Both the position numbers and the translations under genes were made by a program. Shown here piece after piece: positions 1-11,471 of a DNA stretch of 11,471 bases (the stretch's first letter is position 1; each line of letters starts with the position of its first letter). Below the pieces are notes generated by a model, which saw nothing but the letters and a program-made list of their open reading frames with translations, had not been told where the DNA came from and searched no databases. The DNA comes from a virus (Duplodnaviria > Heunggongvirae > Uroviricota > Caudoviricetes). Location: the IMG/VR virus record IMGVR_UViG_2585427783_000001, positions 1 through 11,471 of that record; one strand, written 5' to 3'.

Positions 1-616
1 GTTATACGAATCCGGCAGAATAACGGAAGCCGCGTGTATGGCTCATGTCCGGAGAAAAATCCACGATGTGCATGCAAGAGCGCCCACCTACATCACCACG
101 GAAGCCCTGCAGCGTATCGGTGAACTGTATGCCATCGAGGCAGAGGTCCGGGGCTGTTCAGCAGAACAGCGTCTGGCGGCAAGAAAAGCCAGAGCCGCGC
201 CACTGATGCAGTCACTGTATGACTGGATACAGCAACAGATGAAAACACTGTCGCGTCACTCAGATACGGCAAAAGCGTTCGCATACCTGCTGAAACAGTG
301 GGATGCACTGAACGTGTACTGCAGTAATGGCTGGGGGGAAATCGACAACAACATCGCAGAGAACGCCTTACGGGGAGTGGCCGTAGGCCGGAAAAACTGG
401 ATGTTCGCGGGTTCCGACAGCGGTGGTGAACATGCGGCGGTGTTGTACTCGCTGATCGGCACATGCCGTCTGAACAATGTGGAGTCAGAAAAGTGGCTGC
501 GTTACGTCATTGAACATATCCAGGACTGGCCGGCAAACCGGGTACGCGATCTGTTGCCCTGGAAAGTTGATCTGAGCTCTCAGTAAATATCAATACGGTT
601 CTGACGAGTCGCTTAC
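1..616 (+). mobile_element. IS66-family insertion sequence, right-hand portion (rest lies left of the window)
   Basis: The transposase ORF is open to the window edge. About 30 bp after its stop the sequence ...GTCGCTTAC ends at 616, the reverse complement of the GTAAGCG terminus I recall for IS66-family inverted repeats. The integrase-derived sequence starts immediately after. Exact boundary is inferred. Confidence 0.55.
2..586 (+). CDS. IS66-family transposase (TnpC-like), C-terminal part; 5' end outside window
   Basis: Frame is open from position 2 with no upstream stop. Translation carries the conserved IS66 transposase C-terminal block ...[11 protein letters not shown]...[46 protein letters not shown]... 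Stop at 584-586. Confidence 0.85.
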
Positions 617-1394
617 GCTTGGCAAGCCAGTGCCGGAGTATAAACCAAAGCTGGCAAGCAAAGGAACGAAGACGCGGCATCTGGCAATACTTCGCGCTAT
701 TCTCAATATGGCTGTTGAATGGGGATGGCTTGACAGGGCGCCCAAAATATCAACACCACGCGTTAAGAATGGACGAATCAGATGGCTTACAGAGGAGGAA
801 TCGAAGCGCCTGTTTGCAGAAATTGCTCCTCACTTCTTCCCTGTGGTCATGTTTGCAATCACGACAGGCCTTCGCCGTTCCAACGTTACAGACCTTGAGT
901 GGTCACAGGTCGATCTGGATAAGAAAATGGCATGGATGCACCCTGATGAAACAAAAGCTGGCAATGCGATTGGAGTTCCTCTTAACGAAACCGCATGCCA
1001 GATATTAAGAAAACAGCAGGGGCTCCATAAGAGATGGGTATTTGTCCACACCAAACCTGCCTACCGAAGCGACGGAACAAAAACAGCAGCGGTAAGGAAA
1101 ATGAGAACCGACAGCAACAAGGCATGGAAGGGAGCGTTAAAGCGGGCAGGCATTAGCAACTTCCGCTTCCATGATCTGAGGCATACCTGGGCAAGCTGGC
1201 TGGTTCAGTCCGGTGTCTCTCTTCTTGCACTTAAAGAGATGGGAGGATGGGAAACTCTCGAAATGGTTCAAAGATACGCCCACCTTTCAGCCGGGCATCT
1301 CACCGAGCACGCGAGCAAAATCGATGCGATTATAAGTCGCAATGGCACAAATACGGCACAAGAGGAGAACGTAGTTTACTTAAATGTGAGGTAA
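617..1394 (+). pseudogene. int: Tyrosine recombinase / phage integrase, 3' fragment truncated by the IS66 insertion
   Basis: Translation ends with the catalytic signature of tyrosine recombinases (...FRFHDLRHTWASWLVQSGVSLLALKEMGGWETLEMVQRYAHLS..., the R..HxxR..Y box) preceded by ...ITTGLRRSNVTDLEWSQVDLDKKMAWMHPDETKAGNAIGVPL... Only about 255 codons remain and the N-terminal DNA-binding domains are missing. The frame runs upstream into IS66 sequence with no plausible native start (the ORF track starts at a GTG at 630). Confidence 0.8.
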
Positions 1395-1408
1395 CTTATT
1401 GATTTAAA

Positions 1409-1454
1409 TGGTGCCGATAATAGGAGTCGAACCTACGACCTTCGCATTACGAAT
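1409..1454 (-). tRNA. 3'-terminal 46 nt of tRNA-Thr only (att-core remnant, not a functional tRNA)
   Basis: Reverse complement of 1409-1454 reads ATTCGTAATGCGAAGGTCGTAGGTTCGACTCCTATTATCGGCACCA, which matches as recalled the anticodon-loop-to-CCA part of E. coli tRNA-Thr(CGU) (thrW). Similarity stops at 1455, and the 5' acceptor strand, D-arm and anticodon stem are absent. It lies 14 bp after the integrase stop, convergent with it. Confidence 0.7.
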
Positions 1455-1837
1455 TATAAGAATCCGCTTCTAATTCAAAGCATTACCCCATCAACACTGC
1501 GCTCACACGTCCCACCACATCAAAACATGTAAAGCCTTGCAAGCCATTGCGAGGCTTTATGTGTCTCAGTTTTGTCCCACCTTTTATTACGACTTGCATA
1601 GCCAATGAAGATAAACGTGACGACAAACGGCGCAGCAATCTTCCTTTCTTTCACACTTTCCCAACCCAGCATGTATACTTTTCTGCCATAACTAAAGTGA
1701 ATGCCTGTTATGAGCAACAAACAGGCATTAGCGCCGCTAGCATATTAGCTACCATTCGACTGCCACACTTAAGATTGATTTCTTAAGTATAACCCGGTTT
1801 CTAATACTACTTATATATTCAGCTCTGAGATTCATTT

Positions 1838-4800
1838 TTATCTCGTAAAGCTAGTTTTATGACTTCCTGTTAGCTGACTGTCTTCATAATAAAATGCTCC
1901 ACTAAACTCCTGTCGACCATAATGATGACTTGATATGAGTGAGCCCCCTATAACGCCCTTTTCACCTAATAATGTCCAAACGATTTCAAAACCATTGTCC
2001 CTTAACATTGTTAAAAATGGTTCTTTTTTAACAAGTAGATGCGGCTTTGAAGCATATACAGCTTCAGCTGCAAAGCAAACCATAGTTCCATTTTCATCAT
2101 TGAAGCTACCCTCTACTTCCCCACTTTTTAATCCCATCTTTTCAAAGATTAAGTTACTAGGCTTCAAAAAATTCAAAGTTTCTATTTTTGATTTGTCGAA
2201 CTCCTCTTCCCACAAATAATTAATCGAAGTGACACTAACATCAGCTATCTTAGCTCCAGACTCCCGGTCTGTTACCGAAGTCCAGTCAGATCCACCATAA
2301 TAATCTGATTTAAAAGACTTAAATGCTTCGGACCAATAGTACTCCCTATTAAATAATTGGTATCTATCAGTACATTCCGGCATCCACCTGCCCATAAAGT
2401 CTTGAGCTATTGCCCAACATCTAAAATTTTCAAATTCTTCAACTTTAACGATATAACTTCTGATCTGATACCAAACCTCTTTTCGTGGGTGCCCCCAATC
2501 ATCGTTTCCAATAATTTTTGGTTCTTTCCATGATGGATGACTTTCTAATACTATCCATTCATCACCATTATCATCTTTAACTTCAATAAAAGCATATGAA
2601 TTAGTTATAGTAGTAGAACTTTTAACCCAGTCTTCATTAGAGCAAGTCCAATCAAACACTTCATCATTAAGCCACCACATTTCTTTATTGCTTATTTTTT
2701 TCGTTCCAGTTTCTTTAAGTAAGATAGTGGGATCTATATCTCTTACGTAAGGCTCCCATGGCCCTTGGTATGGATTTTCCTTTCGTTCGTCACCATAACC
2801 TTCAAAACGAGTAAAATTATCGGCTAGCCTTGCCATGTATTCATAATAAGCAATCCATTGGTATTTTTTACCAATCCGTTCTTGGAATGCCTCTCTACGT
2901 CCACGTCCAGTTCCTATTTGTTGGTCAAAATTACCATGCTTCTCCGGATCCCAACCAAGCTCTATAACACGATTGAATATAAATTGTTGAGCTAGTCGAA
3001 GATCAAAGTGTTTATCAGTTTCCAGCAGATTATTATTATGATCCAGGTATGGCTCTATTTCATTTTCAAACTCACTTAACAGATCGTATGACAATGAATT
3101 CTTAAATAATTTCTTGCTCGCCTTTATTTCTTCCTGTGCTTTTCTACCGACCACACGACCAAATTTAATTCCTTCGCATTTATCATCATAAATGAAAGGA
3201 TCTGTGGCATCATACAAGTCTTTTTGTTGATCAGTTAGTTTACATTTGAAAGTTTTAAAAACTTGCTTACGGTCAACAGGGGTTTCATTAAACTTGCAAC
3301 CAGACCAATCAGAATGATTATAATTTGTTCCAATAGTATATCGTGAAAAGTCACCATCTTCCATAATAGAGCTCCAGAGTTCCCGATAAGGTTCTTTATC
3401 ATAAAGGGACTCTAGTTCCTCTTTTGAAGGAATCTTGTCAGGCCAAATGCTGTTGTAGGGTGGTCTAGTCTTGGATAATTCAATGCTTTCAAGTTCCAAT
3501 CCAAGATGATTAGCAAATTCAATAATCTCTCTAGCATAATCTCTAAGTAATATATTTGGATACACATACTTAGAACAAAATACCTTTTGGTAAACAGTTT
3601 CGGCTAAATATTTTAGTTCTTTAATATTATCAGTTCGCAATGTACAGCCTAATGCAACTGCAAATATTCTTTCCCAAACGTAAGGATCATTTACACCATA
3701 AAACTTATCAATTATTTTTCTCAATACAGGAATTCTTGGCTCGAGTAAACTCACTAAAGCCTTAGTTGAGCAATCTCGAAGTTCTCGGTTACTAGAAGTT
3801 AAAAACCAGCATAAACTAGTTGCAACTAGCTCGATTGACTCATCCGAAACAAAGCTTTTATCTGTTCTGGCCCATGCCCAATCGATTAGATGCCTAAATG
3901 CTGAGTCTTCACTATATTTATATTTAAGTTCTGTAGTCCAAAACGAATCTCGATTTGCCAAAGAATAATCTTTTAGCCAATCATGCAAGAAATTAGCATT
4001 AAAGGGATGGCCAACTAAACCTGAAATAGAGATCACTGCCTCGAGGAAATGATCAAAACTATCTTTAAATTTAAAAACATGTTCATTGATGAAAGGTCTA
4101 ATTTTTTCGAAATAAATAGCCTTAATATCGCGCCATATCAAGCTATCAATAAAGGCTTCTAGTAATTTAAGATTATTGCTGAACTCCGGCAGAAATTCAT
4201 AAAGCTCTTTTTCATACCTTTCTGGCAATTGAATAGACAACGCCTCTACTATTCCCGATTTTATATAAAAATCACATTCATCATGAAAATATTTTTTCAG
4301 ACGACCATCAGGCTTAAATTCACTTTCGATATTTTCAACATCATTTAATAAAAAATTAACAGTTAAATGATCATCAAACCTTTCAAAAGCCACATAAACT
4401 ACTTCCTCAGTAGAATTATCATCATTTCTCACTATGCCTTTAGTCAATAATCCTTCGTCAATCAAGGCGCTGAGGAAGGTTTTATCAGCAACATAATCAT
4501 TAACTACAGATTGAACCACTGAGTGAGCATCTTTAAGTGAAATACTATTACGACCAATCTCTAATTTGAATTTTATGATTTCATTGAGAGCATCTTTAAC
4601 AAGAGGAAAACTGGGATCGAATGCATATTTTTTTGGCGATGCTAATGATTTATTTACCCCTTCAACTAAAAAGTTAAAAATATTTGAAATCCCATTAAAT
4701 CCAACAGGCACTTTGGTTAAACCATTTTTCTTAATGCCTTCACACAATAACTTAAGAAATAGAGGATTTTTAAACTCTGGATTAAGGTTAGGAGATGAAG

Positions 4801-5443
4801 GCCTCTCAATATTGTAATAATCATAAAATAGACTAACCGCTTCCAACTCAACGTTCTGGAATCCAATATGTTCATGAATTTCAAAATTATTTCGCACAAC
4901 ATTCTCATGTGAAATTGTTACATTTCTATATGTTGTTCTGACTGACATTATCAGACCAAGCCATTCAAAGCATCTGATTTCATCGACAAAACTGTTAATA
5001 TTGTCATTCCAGAATTTATTTCCATTACCTTCATTAATAGCATCAATAAAAACTAAGACTCTTTTTCCTGTTTTTTTGCCATATAAATTCAGTTTTTCTA
5101 GGAATTCACGAGAAGTGATTTTAAGCTGTAATCTCTTGAAGATTTGTGACCATGGAGATTCATCTGAAGTAAGTTGTTGCCCTAGTATGAGTAGTGAAGG
5201 ATACCCAGAAGCAATTCGATTTTTAATCACATCAGCCAGTAAATGAGACTTACCAATTCCTGCTTTTCCTTCGAGAAGTAAGAATGGGTTGTTAGCCAAC
5301 TTCACTGTTGTTGAATTAATGAATATACGTAATTCATTGCACGCATAGTCAAATTCCCGAAGCATTCGCAGAGTAGATGAATACTTATCACTGTAATGCT
5401 TGGTTTCACCTACTTGCTCTGACTTTTCTCGGAGTTCCCACAA
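1838..5443 (-). CDS. Large P-loop NTPase of the STAND class (NACHT/NB-ARC-like) with a ~1000-aa unassigned C-terminal region; candidate antiphage protein
   Basis: Uninterrupted 1201-codon ORF. Walker A GKAGIGKS (aa 59-66, nt 5246-5269), Walker B-like hhhhDxxxE VLVFIDAINE (aa 129-138) and sensor-1-like IMSVRTT (aa 165-171) occur in the order and spacing typical of STAND NTPases. Low GC. The start codon is uncertain: the track uses a TTG at 5443, and the first in-frame ATG is codon 27 at 5365. Confidence 0.8.
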   Translation of the reverse strand: MWELREKSEQVGETKHYSDKYSSTLRMLREFDYACNELRIFINSTTVKLANNPFLLLEGKAGIGKSHLLADVIKNRIASGYPSLLILGQQLTSDESPWSQIFKRLQLKITSREFLEKLNLYGKKTGKRVLVFIDAINEGNGNKFWNDNINSFVDEIRCFEWLGLIMSVRTTYRNVTISHENVVRNNFEIHEHIGFQNVELEAVSLFYDYYNIERPSSPNLNPEFKNPLFLKLLCEGIKKNGLTKVPVGFNGISNIFNFLVEGVNKSLASPKKYAFDPSFPLVKDALNEIIKFKLEIGRNSISLKDAHSVVQSVVNDYVADKTFLSALIDEGLLTKGIVRNDDNSTEEVVYVAFERFDDHLTVNFLLNDVENIESEFKPDGRLKKYFHDECDFYIKSGIVEALSIQLPERYEKELYEFLPEFSNNLKLLEAFIDSLIWRDIKAIYFEKIRPFINEHVFKFKDSFDHFLEAVISISGLVGHPFNANFLHDWLKDYSLANRDSFWTTELKYKYSEDSAFRHLIDWAWARTDKSFVSDESIELVATSLCWFLTSSNRELRDCSTKALVSLLEPRIPVLRKIIDKFYGVNDPYVWERIFAVALGCTLRTDNIKELKYLAETVYQKVFCSKYVYPNILLRDYAREIIEFANHLGLELESIELSKTRPPYNSIWPDKIPSKEELESLYDKEPYRELWSSIMEDGDFSRYTIGTNYNHSDWSGCKFNETPVDRKQVFKTFKCKLTDQQKDLYDATDPFIYDDKCEGIKFGRVVGRKAQEEIKASKKLFKNSLSYDLLSEFENEIEPYLDHNNNLLETDKHFDLRLAQQFIFNRVIELGWDPEKHGNFDQQIGTGRGRREAFQERIGKKYQWIAYYEYMARLADNFTRFEGYGDERKENPYQGPWEPYVRDIDPTILLKETGTKKISNKEMWWLNDEVFDWTCSNEDWVKSSTTITNSYAFIEVKDDNGDEWIVLESHPSWKEPKIIGNDDWGHPRKEVWYQIRSYIVKVEEFENFRCWAIAQDFMGRWMPECTDRYQLFNREYYWSEAFKSFKSDYYGGSDWTSVTDRESGAKIADVSVTSINYLWEEEFDKSKIETLNFLKPSNLIFEKMGLKSGEVEGSFNDENGTMVCFAAEAVYASKPHLLVKKEPFLTMLRDNGFEIVWTLLGEKGVIGGSLISSHHYGRQEFSGAFYYEDSQLTGSHKTSFTR

Positions 5444-5536
5444 TATTGATACCGCTCCGCCAATAGCTGTCTGGCAGCTAGAAACATAGTTATTAAATTT
5501 ATTTATAGGGATTTCATCTAATTTAGAAAAATTAAT

Positions 5537-6292
5537 CTACTGATATATATCAGAAATTTCTTTTAAGGACTGATTTATTTCAAATAATTCTGAGGAAATT
5601 ACATCGCAACTATGTAATTTCTTTCCAGCGACCAGAAAGCTATCTATATGCGAATAAAATATTTTAGAAAAATCATTAGTTCTACCGAGGCCATCAAATA
5701 TCTCTGCTATTTCTAGCTTTACGTTGAGTTCGGGTGTGTATCGACCTCCCAAGTCAGCTATTGCTTGACTATTTTTTTCATTTAACCAATCATCACTTAA
5801 GTGAAAAGTTAGTTTCTCATCTATAGACCGTAAAATAAGTTTGACTTGAATGAGCTCTTCATTAATATCGAATATTTTTTCTTTATACGTTTCTTCGATA
5901 TGTAGCTTTTTTAACTTCGAACAATTATTGATTTTTAATGATAACATCCCATAAAAAAGGCTGAGTTGTTGTTGAGTTGGGGGAGTGACGCTTGGATATT
6001 CTTTGAACTTGTCTAATAACATCTCTTTGTCAGGGAACTCTTTAAAAAGGATGTACTCATTCAACATCTCAAACAATGGTTTAGAATGATAAAATGGAAT
6101 TGCTCCACTTTCTACTGGATATGTTTCTTCAAACTCAATTGCCGTCTCTTCAATTAGTTGATATAATCTATCCACATATTTTTCTGTGGGGAATAATGCT
6201 TTCTTAATCCAACTATATCCTTCTTGAGAAATGAATTGATCAATAAGTTTAGTTGCTACATAAGTTGCCACTGTAATTGATATGGGTTCCAT
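5537..6292 (-). CDS. Hypothetical protein (251 aa), upstream partner of the STAND NTPase; possible detached effector or N-terminal domain
   Basis: ATG at 6292 is preceded by GGGAGA about 8 nt upstream, a good Shine-Dalgarno. Same strand and same frame as the downstream NTPase gene, low GC. I see no catalytic motif in the translation. Confidence 0.7.
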   Translation of the reverse strand: MEPISITVATYVATKLIDQFISQEGYSWIKKALFPTEKYVDRLYQLIEETAIEFEETYPVESGAIPFYHSKPLFEMLNEYILFKEFPDKEMLLDKFKEYPSVTPPTQQQLSLFYGMLSLKINNCSKLKKLHIEETYKEKIFDINEELIQVKLILRSIDEKLTFHLSDDWLNEKNSQAIADLGGRYTPELNVKLEIAEIFDGLGRTNDFSKIFYSHIDSFLVAGKKLHSCDVISSELFEINQSLKEISDIYQ

Positions 6293-6814: not shown

Positions 6815-7369
6815 TCATTTATCTCCGACCGGAAACTTCTTATACAGTGTCGATATACCAACATCATAGATGATCGCCACCTTCTGGCGAGGAACGCCTG
6901 ATGCAATTAATCGCCCGGCCTGCGCCCATTGTTCTGGTGTAAGTTTGGGACGACGTCCCCCAATTCGTCCCTGTGCGCGAGCAGCTTCCAGTCCAGCTTT
7001 TGTTCGTTCAACAATCAGTTCTCGTTCCATTTCAGCCAGGGCACCCATCACATGAAAGAAAAAACGCCCCATCGGTGTGCTGGTATCAATAGCATCCGTC
7101 AGGCTGCGAAAATTAACGCCACGTTCGCGCAACTCCTCAACCAGAATGACCAGATGCCGCATACTACGCCCCAGCCGATCCAGTTTCCAGACCACCAGAG
7201 TGTCACCTGCCGATAATGTCCTGAGCAGTTTTTTCAGTCCCGGTCTTTCGGACTTCGTACCGCTTATCTTGTCTTCAAAAATCAGTTCACATCCTACACA
7301 GTTCAACGCATTACGTTGTAGATCGGTGTTCTGGTCATTTGTTGATACGCGAACATAGCCAATAAGCAT
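6815..7369 (-). CDS. pin: Serine DNA invertase of the Pin/Gin/Hin/Cin family
   Basis: Translation MLIGYVRVSTNDQNTDLQRNAL...DTLVVWKLDRLGRSMRHLV...[28 protein letters not shown]...GRIGGRRPKLT... is a canonical small serine recombinase with catalytic Ser in YVRVST and a C-terminal helix-turn-helix. The ATG at 7369 has GGGGGA about 6 nt upstream. The ORF track begins 12 codons earlier (MASFLLLPGGST), probably not the real start. Confidence 0.9.
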   Translation of the reverse strand: MLIGYVRVSTNDQNTDLQRNALNCVGCELIFEDKISGTKSERPGLKKLLRTLSAGDTLVVWKLDRLGRSMRHLVILVEELRERGVNFRSLTDAIDTSTPMGRFFFHVMGALAEMERELIVERTKAGLEAARAQGRIGGRRPKLTPEQWAQAGRLIASGVPRQKVAIIYDVGISTLYKKFPVGDK

Positions 7370-7455
7370 GGTAGATCCCCCAGGTAAAAGCAGGAATGAT
7401 GCCATTTGCTCGTTATTTCTGCATTTTCATAAACCTTGGTTTGGGAGAAGGTGCT
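7041..7455. repeat. Left arm of a ~415-bp inverted repeat (invertase 5' region plus crossover site)
   Basis: Reverse complement of 9164-9578 aligns base for base with 7041-7455 (coordinate sum 16619) with only a few mismatches: two amino-acid changes in the invertase and CC versus TG inside the crossover site. The right arm is cut at 9578 by IS100, so the original repeat may have been longer. Confidence 0.8.
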
Positions 7456-7893
7456 CCAGCTATTGGCGTTCCGTTCTTCTGGCCGTCCGCTGCAATGCCA
7501 AATACTGTAATCGACAGCTGGTCCAGTATGGTGTTTTTGAAGTTCAACGGCGCGAAATTCTCTGCCACTGATTATCCTGTGCTGGCGAAAGTGTTTCCTT
7601 CGCTGGTATTACCTGAAGCCCGCGGTGATTTCATTCGTATCTGGGATGACGGGCGAGGTGCAGACGGTGGTCGCGAATTATTAAGCTGGCAGGCAGCTAC
7701 AAACTTTTCTCAGTTTGCCGGGAATATAGGCGAAGGTGCGGGACACGCAATTAACTTTCATGATGGCATCGCCGGAAATCAGCCAGGATTTTCACGATTT
7801 AATTTCACCAGTAACTCTGTGGGTGATGGTGTGAATTTTGTTGCTGTCAGACCGCGAAATATTGCATTTAACTTTCTGGTGAGGGCTAAATAA
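7396..7893 (+). CDS. Tail-fibre C-terminal variable-domain cassette (Sv-like); lacks the constant N-terminal part
   Basis: Gly/Asn-rich translation ending ...RPRNIAFNFLVRAK, like side-tail-fibre C-termini. Its stop overlaps the start of the following tfa gene (TAATG). The first ~10 codons (MMPFARYFCIFIN) lie inside the inverted repeat, antisense to the invertase leader. There is a stop at 7372-7374 and no upstream tail-fibre constant region. Confidence 0.7.
   Translation: MMPFARYFCIFINLGLGEGAPAIGVPFFWPSAAMPNTVIDSWSSMVFLKFNGAKFSATDYPVLAKVFPSLVLPEARGDFIRIWDDGRGADGGRELLSWQAATNFSQFAGNIGEGAGHAINFHDGIAGNQPGFSRFNFTSNSVGDGVNFVAVRPRNIAFNFLVRAK
7424..7449. other. Invertase crossover site, left (gix/hix/cix/pix-like 26-bp site)
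   Basis: TTTTCATAAACC-TT-GGTTTGGGAGAA resembles the recalled hix/gix consensus TTATCAAAAACC-NN-GGTTTTTGATAA (imperfect palindromic half-sites). It sits exactly at the junction between the inverted repeat and unique DNA. Confidence 0.55.
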
Positions 7894-8486
7894 TGAAACC
7901 TGTTTTTGATGAAAATGGGCTGGCTACAGTGCCGGGCGATATGCGTTGTTTTTATTATGATGCTGAAACATCTGAGTATACGGGCTGGTCTGATGAATAT
8001 ATTAATACTGGCGTAAGTATGCCCGCCTGTTCCACTGGTATTGACCCTGGCGAAAACATTCCGGGAAGAGTGGCAGTATTTACAGGTAAGGGATGGCGCC
8101 ATGAAGAAGACCATCGCAATGAGACTGTTTACTTAATCGAAAATGGCGCAGCTGTTACAGTGGATTATATCGGTGCCATCAAAGACGGTTATGTCACGAT
8201 TTCACCGTTAACGCCATACGATAAATGGGATGGTGAGAAATGGGTGACAGACACTGAGGCACAACACAGTGCCGCAGTAGACGCGGCAGAAGCACAGCGC
8301 CAGTCACTGATTGATGCAGCAATGGCTTCCATTAGTCTGATTCAGCTGAAATTACAGGCCGGACGGAAACTGACTCAGGCAGAAACAACCCGACTTAACG
8401 CCGTGCTGGATTACATTGACGCGGTGACGGCAACAGATACCAGCACCGCGCCGGATATCATCTGGCCTGAACTGCCGGAGGCGTAG
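7893..8486 (+). CDS. tfa: Tail-fibre assembly protein (Tfa/U-like chaperone)
   Basis: 197 aa with blocks ...AVFTGKGWRHEEDHRNETVY...YDKWDGEKWVTDTEAQ... and the C-terminal DTSTAPDIIWPELP motif shared by lambda Tfa / Mu U-type proteins. Translationally coupled to the preceding cassette. Confidence 0.85.
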   Translation: MKPVFDENGLATVPGDMRCFYYDAETSEYTGWSDEYINTGVSMPACSTGIDPGENIPGRVAVFTGKGWRHEEDHRNETVYLIENGAAVTVDYIGAIKDGYVTISPLTPYDKWDGEKWVTDTEAQHSAAVDAAEAQRQSLIDAAMASISLIQLKLQAGRKLTQAETTRLNAVLDYIDAVTATDTSTAPDIIWPELPEA

Positions 8487-8886
8487 GCCATTCAATATCG
8501 GGTGCTGTTGACGTATCAACACGCATCAGCAGCACACGGTATTTCTTCCATTGGGTGAGAGTTGTAGCTTCTTCATCAGTTGCGATATCAGCATCAACAG
8601 CATCCTGACGCCAGGATATTTCACTGTCAGCTTTTTCCCGTAATTGGGATTTTTTAACTTCAGCAATAGCTATTAATTCCTTTTTGGTCGGCTGAGGAAT
8701 ATCTATCAGTGCTGGTTTTCCATTCAGTGTTCCAATCTGTTTTCCTGGTGGAATATCCATAAATAACTTCTTATGTTCTTCCTCACTGACTATTACACCA
8801 TCATCAGGCCACAGACCTGATGCCTCAAATTTTTCTTTCTCCGATATGGGGAAAAAGCCATTTGCTTTAGCGCTCCATACGTACAT
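8458..8886 (-). CDS. tfa: Tail-fibre assembly protein, alternative copy (Tfa/U'-like)
   Basis: 142 aa ending ...WKKYRVLLMRVDTSTAPDIEWPTPP, the same C-terminal motif as the forward copy. Start is adjacent to the stop of the reverse tail-fibre cassette. Its 3' end overlaps the forward tfa by 29 bp. Confidence 0.8.
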   Translation of the reverse strand: MYVWSAKANGFFPISEKEKFEASGLWPDDGVIVSEEEHKKLFMDIPPGKQIGTLNGKPALIDIPQPTKKELIAIAEVKKSQLREKADSEISWRQDAVDADIATDEEATTLTQWKKYRVLLMRVDTSTAPDIEWPTPPAVQAR

Positions 8887-8887
8887 A

Positions 8888-9223
8888 TCAATACCCCACC
8901 GCTATAATGTCCACATTAAATCCCCCGGGACCTGCCTGCCAGATGCTGGCCCCTGTTAATGATTTTGTTTGATGAACAACCGCCACATTTGCTGGCGATT
9001 GTGTTTCAGTTGTTACAGTACCGATATCATTCCAGTTAATTGAGATGGAATAGTTCGTTGTTGTAAACGACCGGGGGAAAGTTATGTGTCTTACATTGGT
9101 GCCGACAGGAAATCCAAGATAAACACGCTGAATTATCATTCCTCCAGGTAACATAACCCAGTTAGCACCTTCTCCAAAACCAACATTTATGAAAATGCAG
9201 AAATAACGAGCAAATGGCATCAT
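8888..9223 (-). CDS. Alternative tail-fibre C-terminal variable-domain cassette (Sv'-like); lacks the constant part
   Basis: Mirror-image partner of the forward cassette, beginning inside the right repeat arm with the same MMPFARYFCIFIN leader and then diverging (...GEGANWVMLPGG...NVDIIAVGY). Directly followed by the reverse tfa gene. Confidence 0.65.
   Translation of the reverse strand: MMPFARYFCIFINVGFGEGANWVMLPGGMIIQRVYLGFPVGTNVRHITFPRSFTTTNYSISINWNDIGTVTTETQSPANVAVVHQTKSLTGASIWQAGPGGFNVDIIAVGY
9170..9195. other. Invertase crossover site, right (inverted relative to the left site)
   Basis: TTCTCCAAAACC-AA-CATTTATGAAAA is the reverse complement of the left site apart from two central bases, and sits at the junction of repeat and unique DNA. 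Confidence 0.55.
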
Positions 9224-9249
9224 TCCTGCTTTTACCTGGGGGATCTACC

Positions 9250-11471
<2,222 letters not shown>

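Follow-up and report, generated by a model that had tools for sequence, protein, structure and literature searches.

The 46-bp attP common to phages SfI, SfIV, and SfV directs integration into thrW, and cargo genes adjoin the int-attP region of these phages (PMC3851460). The 46-nt thrW attP/attB sequence of SfV, SfI, SfII, SfIV, and SfX (P22-type) is identical to the core described here. In SfI, it is annotated 14 nt past the int stop on the opposite strand, which is the geometry of our locus. The int-attP regions of HK446, mEp213, mEp043, mEpX2, HK75, HK542, and ECP1 are 98.7–98.8% identical to the corresponding part of our sequence (617–1454), and the records of mEp213, HK446, mEpX2, and HK542 annotate the site as an attP similar to thrW and ptwF. 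In the HK446/mEp213 group, a different arm lies past the core, and tail-fibre genes follow directly.

Escherichia coli K-12 offers two further points of comparison. ptwF, at the right end of CP4-6, contains the same thrW 3′ fragment as our sequence. Between its CCA side and yagP, 55 nt are left of the 3′ end of an integrase gene of the family found here; identity to positions 1340–1454 of our sequence is 91%. Its 5′ side is the end of CP4-6 with IntF. In genomes of enterotoxigenic E. coli (ETEC), the place of ptwF next to yagP is taken by a different core copy, with a 1-nt deletion. The right end of K-12 e14 (stf, invertible P segment, pinE, mcrA, and attR) has the same architecture as the right-hand part of our locus, running from tail fibre to defence-type cargo to attR, and its 26-bp crossover site is homologous to the Pin sites found here. 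However, e14 integrates in icd and carries mcrA, whereas our locus concerns thrW, carries avs2, and has two facing pin genes over one segment. "e14-like" is a fair description of the right-hand element.

We analysed the window, that is, the whole stretch of 11,471 nucleotides in IMG/VR record IMGVR_UViG_2585427783_000001, starting from a tRNA-Thr fragment next to an integrase gene. The features of the window are as follows.

1–616, plus strand: right end of an IS66-family element, with the 3′ part of tnpC at 38–586; the terminal inverted repeat ends at 616
617–624, no strand: 8-bp target-site repeat of IS66, one of two copies, GCTTGGCA
609–1394, plus strand: 3′ two-thirds of a tyrosine integrase gene of the SfX/HK446/mEp213 type, a pseudogene (residues 126–386 of 386)
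1395–1408, no strand: 14-bp spacer between int stop and core, on the P′ (int-proximal) side, HK446/mEp213 type by alignment
1409–1454, minus strand: 46-bp att core, equal to thrW 31–76, with the SfI 46-nt attP core at the same position
1455 to about 1590, no strand: SfV/SfI-type attP arm on the cargo-proximal side, with a hairpin at 1525–1564
1520–1672, minus strand: hypothetical ORF of 50 aa at the arm/cargo boundary (WP_000901952.1 in sister genomes)
1838–6292, minus strand: avs2 (AVAST type 2 anti-phage NTPase) in the cargo slot, with a TAG at 5537–5539
6815–7405, minus strand: pinE-type serine invertase gene at the right end of the Avs2 prophage (Pfam Resolvase and HTH_7)
7424–7449, minus strand: left Pin-type crossover site of 26 bp, TTCTCCCAAACCAAGGTTTATGAAAA
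7456–9163, no strand: invertible tail-fibre segment with two alternative fibre C-termini and two tfa genes
9170–9195, plus strand: right Pin-type crossover site of 26 bp, homologous to the e14 site
9214–9578, plus strand: second pin gene, a partial match to Pfam Resolvase, cut by IS100 at 9579

The minus strand of the core reads ATTCGTAATGCGAAGGTCGTAGGTTCGACTCCTATTATCGGCACCA. It was compared with K-12 thrW, which encodes tRNA-Thr(CGU), and matched positions 31–76 at 46 of 46 nucleotides with no mismatches; it also matched the intact thrW of sister genomes, in which tRNA genes were called with ARAGORN. The matching span includes the anticodon loop (CGT); it starts with the final base of the 5′ strand of the anticodon stem and ends with the CCA terminus. 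The thrW 46-mer occurred once in the whole window and not at all in 200 shuffles. The integrase ORF stops at 1394 and is convergent with the core, whose CCA end lies 14 bp on. Identity to thrW breaks at 1454/1455, where the window reads tata and thrW reads gcgc. The preliminary description had reported, from the window alone, an exact-looking copy of the 3′ part of tRNA-Thr on the minus strand 14 bp past the integrase stop, with similarity ending abruptly at 1455. Both observations were borne out by comparison with the thrW of K-12 and of sister genomes.

We then asked for any tRNA in the window. ARAGORN found no complete tRNA, and no tRNA match was obtained with Rfam at E ≤ 1. The 5′ half of thrW was not found anywhere in the window with up to three mismatches allowed, and the RNA fold around the core was no better than that of shuffled sequence (z = 0.19). 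Neither a complete nor an alternatively folded tRNA, an outcome that the preliminary description had named as contrary to its view, was recoverable. A functional tRNA gene with a full cloverleaf was therefore rejected, as no set of acceptor stem and D arm could be recovered and the 5′ half is missing. The core is a recombination scar with no tRNA function. It comprises the tRNA 3′ part including CCA within 46-bp limits, next to a cognate, truncated tyrosine integrase gene and with phage arms on both sides. Because the attP geometry of SfI and the published 46-bp attP agree with the window, we identify the fragment by alignment as the standard 46-bp att core of the thrW-integrating lambdoid phages (SfV/SfI/SfX/HK446/P22 group).

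TadA-dependent A-to-I editing has been described in RNAs antisense to thrW and ptwF, where the editing site in ptwF-as could not be confirmed by Sanger sequencing (PMC13170351, 2026). On the plus strand of the window (1409–1460), the UUACGAA loop is kept and the 3′ stem strand is missing (TTATA versus TGCGC in thrW). Since this strand is missing, the editing substrate hairpin is probably not formed at the window core.

The core flanks were compared in a multiple alignment of eleven att regions. Exactly this core block was common to all phage attP sites aligned. The int side of the core is mEp213/HK446-like, unlike that of SfV and SfI, and the high identity of the window to the int-attP of HK446, mEp213, and SfX, which starts at 617, ends exactly at 1454. 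The other side, from 1455 to about 1590, is near-identical to the attP of SfV and SfI and to the attR of the Avs2 prophages in ST131 MB1341 and STK39-3-E. This arm also matches the yagP-proximal core copy (copy 4) of strain E8, and it does not match the mEp213/HK446 arm. A native attP of mEp213/HK446 was rejected because homology stops at the core, and a native attP of any single phage was rejected because int is of the SfX type, the arm is of the SfV type, and the two Int proteins are 56% identical. As judged from these arms, the site is a hybrid attR/attL seam where two prophages adjoin in tandem, one contributing the HK446-type int side and the other the SfV-type arm side. This agrees with the earlier proposal that the fragment is an att remnant marking the junction of two elements.

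The same hybrid seam was found in WP8-S18-CRE-02, where the SfX-type int is full-length (97.7% identity over window 617–1715). There, it joins two prophages in canonical tandem order, a complete SfV/e14-like one nearer thrW and a P22-like remnant nearer yagP. This tandem seam, together with the comparison of the arms, places the crossover within the 46 bp, at the entry of an SfV-like phage into a thrW next to which an SfX-type prophage already lay. In the window, as in the SfV group, cargo adjoins attP (gtr in SfV) and the arm on the cargo side is of the SfV/SfI type. The window differs from the attP of the SfV group in that an SfX/HK446-type int side adjoins an SfV-type arm, Avs2 takes the place of O-antigen modification genes, and int is truncated.

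The hairpin at 1525–1564 is long, has a T-rich stretch behind it, and is conserved in the SfV/SfI attP arm, on the side of the core away from int. Its relative position is the same as that of the sib/tI retroregulation site of phage lambda, which we take to be a putative likeness. The 50-aa ORF overlapping this part of the arm gave no family match in profile searches.

The integrase fragment matched Pfam Phage_integrase (4.6e-35). Its product shares 98–98.9% amino acid identity with the Int of mEp213 and HK446 and approximately 56% with SfV/SfI-type Int, and its gene is 99% identical to the int of Shigella phage SfX at the DNA level. The integrase had been called disrupted, and indeed it corresponds only to residues 126–386 of a 386-aa Int. 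The region to its left (1–616) matched Pfam DDE_Tnp_IS66 and IS66_C, and tnpA, tnpB, and tnpC are annotated here in sister genomes; homology to phage int begins at 617. The second copy of the target-site duplication lies just left of IS66, beyond the window edge. In the closest strain, E1620, the sequence left of the IS reads gcggcttggca/gtaaccgg, and the IS edge in the window reads cgcttac/gcttggca. The int reading frame is continuous when read across IS66. At 60 bp to the left of IS66, outside the window, rusA (at about nt 208) is fused to int (at about nt 318, codon about 107) with a 2-nt microhomology; in the E1620 locus, the fusion and the left side of IS66 lie at 25650–25725. IS66 as the cause of the int truncation was rejected, because the element is flanked by an 8-bp duplication and int runs 60 bp past it to the rusA::int fusion. 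IS66 is a simple insertion and did not create this junction.

The preliminary description assigned the integrase to an element extending leftward. The integrase does belong to a separate element of the SfX/HK446 type, but almost nothing of that element is left: only the 3′ two-thirds of int remain, split by IS66 and fused to rusA of an SfV-like prophage.

The gene in the cargo slot was identified as avs2 by NCBIfam NF041813, with 1594 bits for a 1201-aa part against a cut-off of 1000. Its GC content is 0.30–0.38. With the attP arm on one side and pinE on the other, it fills the slot that gtrA, gtrB, and gtrV occupy in SfV. The minus-strand TAG at 5537–5539 stands where E1620 and E8 read GAG, and it splits the 1484-aa Avs2 into ORFs of 251 aa and 1201 aa. 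Avs2 is thus probably inactive in the window genome, to judge from this codon. Complete Avs2-bearing prophages were found at thrW in canonical orientation in ST131 MB1341, JX21CE35, and STK39-3-E. The far end of the complete ST131 prophage is 98.5% identical to the window across avs2, arm, and core, and the STK39-3-E prophage has, in this order, tail fibre, invertible segment, pinE, avs2, and core. The same order was found in pCE-O153H30-A (NZ_CP172337.1), which is circular, 44.8 kb long, and recorded as a plasmid. Its content (xis, int, attP, avs2, pinE, and the tail, head, lysis, and early genes) is that of a complete SfV/e14-like phage, and it apparently represents an Avs2-carrying phage after excision. 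In all complete Avs2 phages found, the SfV-type arm is paired with an SfV-type Int. These comparisons identify the region right of the core as the right end of an SfV/e14-like prophage, complete forms of which are present at thrW in other strains. The low-GC region with pin had been taken for a second, tandemly inserted e14-like prophage remnant, and the sequences of the complete forms bear this view out.

pinE adjoins avs2 in the window as it does in STK39-3-E and pCE-O153H30-A. The left Pin site has one mismatch to the site upstream of pinE in K-12 e14, and the invertible segment is flanked by 415-nt inverted repeats. The second pin gene comes from a neighbouring SfV/e14-like prophage with GIY-YIG cargo and is intact in E8 and TW10598. 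Across 7041–9578, the two pin genes face each other over one tail-fibre segment, and the orientation of this segment is opposite in E8, TW10598, and other sister strains. The locus thus has a serine invertase, two inverted 26-bp sites, and a segment present in both orientations, as in the Hin/Gin/Cin/Pin systems. Because both orientations occur among sister strains, the segment still flips or flipped recently. The IS100 in the right-hand pin occupies 9579–11471, with istA at 9665–10687 and istB from 10684; among the sister genomes examined, only E1620 has the same insertion. A sub-threshold match to Rfam IS009 was observed on the minus strand at 8507–8690, within the tail-fibre-assembly genes of the segment (48.6 bits, below the gathering score of 117; E = 8e-9).

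The window is near-identical to genomes of the ETEC O6:H16 group, 17 of which share the junction region at 99.9–100%. E1620 differs at three positions in the first 7400 bases of the window. Read in K-12 orientation, the E1620 locus starts with proA, intact thrW(+), an SfV-type int(−), xis, yfd early genes, truncated rusA, and IS66. It continues with the truncated integrase(+), core(−), small ORF, avs2(−), pinE(−), the invertible segment, and the second pin(+) cut by IS100, and it ends with GIY-YIG and AraC genes, an IS3 fragment, a core copy(+), the 55-nt int remnant, a yagP fragment, and paoD. An intact tRNA gene and a further core copy, on the yagP side, were thus present in E1620; the preliminary description had suggested locating both in the full genome. 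The gene order in E8 and in the complete genome of TW10598 is the same as in E1620. The yagP-side copy of ETEC genomes, a separate one with a 1-nt deletion, preserves the old scar known from K-12, and the distance from the window core to yagP is approximately 11 kb in E8 and approximately 13 kb in E1620, which has the IS100 insertion as the window does. E8 has an extra core copy with 49-nt identity to thrW, which derives from an ICE-like element inserted at thrW. At 7432–7543 of the E8 locus, PGAP annotates a 112-nt "tRNA-Ser" that is a thrW core copy at the seam between the ICE-like element and the SfV-like prophage; ARAGORN found no tRNA at this annotation.

The thrW-proximal Int of the ETEC genomes shares 98.7–99.2% identity with SfV/SfI Int and 99% with its counterpart in the complete ST131 Avs2 prophage. 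The SfV-type int and xis adjacent to thrW in E1620 (15961–17435 of the locus) appear to be intact, the former as a full-length ORF of 387 aa, although this prophage has lost everything past rusA.

The core is opposite in strand to intact thrW in E8, E1620, and TW10598, which are all the genomes of the lineage that were examined. In the canonical thrW prophages of MB1341, STK39-3-E, and WP8-S18-CRE-02, in contrast, the core has the orientation of thrW. Since the strands differ in this way, the block int-core-avs2-pinE is, by gene order, inverted relative to thrW in the ETEC lineage. Its right boundary is the invertible segment, and its left boundary is the rusA::int fusion.

The orientation also separates the window from the K-12 ptwF locus. 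In K-12, ptwF has the orientation of thrW, lies next to yagP, and shares 49 nt with thrW, whereas the window core shares 46 nt and is opposite to thrW. The window seam as the ptwF locus (attR of CP4-6) was rejected on the basis of the 46-nt length, the inversion, the distance of about 11–13 kb from yagP, and the unrelated IntF. The preliminary description had placed ptwF beside intF at the end of CP4-6; that position is right for K-12, but IntF is unrelated to the window integrase (E = 0.17), which was rejected as an IntF homologue. The K-12 counterpart of the window integrase is the int remnant of 55 nt located between ptwF and yagP.

From these comparisons, we propose that the thrW att core in the window is the seam of two tandem prophages and was later affected by an inversion, a deletion, and IS66, and we give this account as a whole a probability of roughly 0.88. 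The Int of thrW phages would exchange strands within the 46 bp common to attP and the 3′ end of thrW; integration would rebuild the tRNA gene at one prophage end and leave a core copy lacking the rest of the tRNA at the other. In the ancestor of the ETEC lineage, an older prophage with an integrase of the SfX/HK446 type would already have stood behind thrW when an SfV/e14-like prophage with Avs2 in its cargo slot integrated there. The resulting seam would have had the order SfV-type P arm, core, HK446-type P′ arm, and int, a step shown by sequence comparison. The block int-core-avs2-pinE would later have been inverted, most likely via the invertible segments of two tandem SfV/e14-like prophages, by Pin or by homologous recombination. 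Recombination between two invertible segments would explain the two pin genes that face each other over one segment. A later deletion would have joined rusA of the thrW-proximal prophage to int at codon about 107, and IS66 would then have inserted into what remained of int. No genome with the inversion and not yet the deletion was found; strain I4 was rejected as such an intermediate, because it has a different, IS26-rearranged arrangement and is uninformative. The end of the prophage with GIY-YIG cargo has an SfV-type arm, and the SfX-type element would therefore be a third element or a mere remnant, which makes the history less parsimonious.

The order of the last rearrangements could be different. 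An illegitimate inversion with breaks in rusA and int may have made the fusion, followed by a deletion, Pin-mediated or homologous, between directly repeated invertible-segment sites, in which the late genes and the prophage in between were lost. The 2-nt microhomology at rusA::int is what an illegitimate breakpoint would be expected to leave, IS66 is a plain insertion with a target-site duplication and not the maker of the junction, and Pin sites are present. However, an illegitimate inversion spanning more than 20 kb, a rare event, would be required, whereas recombination at inverted Pin sites or repeats is known and frequent, and the segment flips among sister strains. We consider it unlikely, but a serious possibility. 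Much less probable is an origin without recombination at att, in which the block int-core-arm-avs2-pinE would be the attP region, still intact, of a single mosaic phage whose circular form recombined with a resident invertible-segment/pin region. Such entry in a single step would give the inverted orientation, so that this orientation and the two facing pin genes would be explained without a long-range inversion, and the gene order and strands of the window are indeed those of pCE-O153H30-A (xis, int, core, avs2, pinE, and invertible segment). The phage would nevertheless have to combine an SfX/HK446-type int with an SfV-type arm. SfX-type identity stops exactly at the core, every complete Avs2 phage found has an SfV-type Int with this arm, the hybrid of int and arm was absent from the phage records searched, and the identical seam in WP8-S18-CRE-02 is an ordinary tandem junction of two prophages. 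We regard the mosaic phage as very improbable.

The similarity to tRNA-Thr, taken by itself, would also be expected of a decayed duplicate of the tRNA gene or of a chance match with no phage integration, and nothing more speaks for such an origin. Its chances are practically negligible in view of the perfect 46-nt match, which shuffling did not reproduce, and the lack of a 5′ half in the window. In addition, the limits of the match coincide with those of the SfI attP core and with the end of the HK446/mEp213 homology, and phage arms flank it on both sides.

Besides the core, the window seam retains a P arm cognate to the apparently intact SfV-type Int/Xis encoded at thrW. Under the preferred account of a tandem seam that was later inverted, thrW attL and the window seam might form an inverted att pair approximately 13 kb apart, at which Int/Xis would flip the remnant on induction rather than excise it. 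The site resembling attR is inverted relative to the thrW-proximal Int end, and the remnant could for this reason not excise. We consider this behaviour distinctly doubtful. The flipped isomer (SfV-type int, core, arm, and avs2) was found in none of the sister ETEC genomes, and its only record was the free circular phage pCE-O153H30-A. If the prediction is true, the prophage would be non-excisable, Avs2 would be fixed in the chromosome, and a segment invertible by Int would have been created.

Among 5426 complete E. coli genomes, the 46-mer occurred 7582 times in 5017, with up to four copies per genome. Att scars of thrW are commonplace; features of this kind were already known, as were the hotspot, the phage family, and the core. 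The chief value of the present locus lies in the annotation and interpretation of thrW. Core seams can mislead automatic annotation, as in the case of the tRNA-Ser called by PGAP. Elements have integrated one after another at the thrW hotspot of E. coli, and each seam keeps a core copy of 46 nt (or 49 nt). The attP-adjacent slot of SfV-like phages, known for serotype-conversion genes, can hold the anti-phage gene avs2. The inversion that would have parted the Avs2 end from its own integrase involves no new mechanism and may serve as an example of a prophage-borne defence gene becoming locked into the chromosome.
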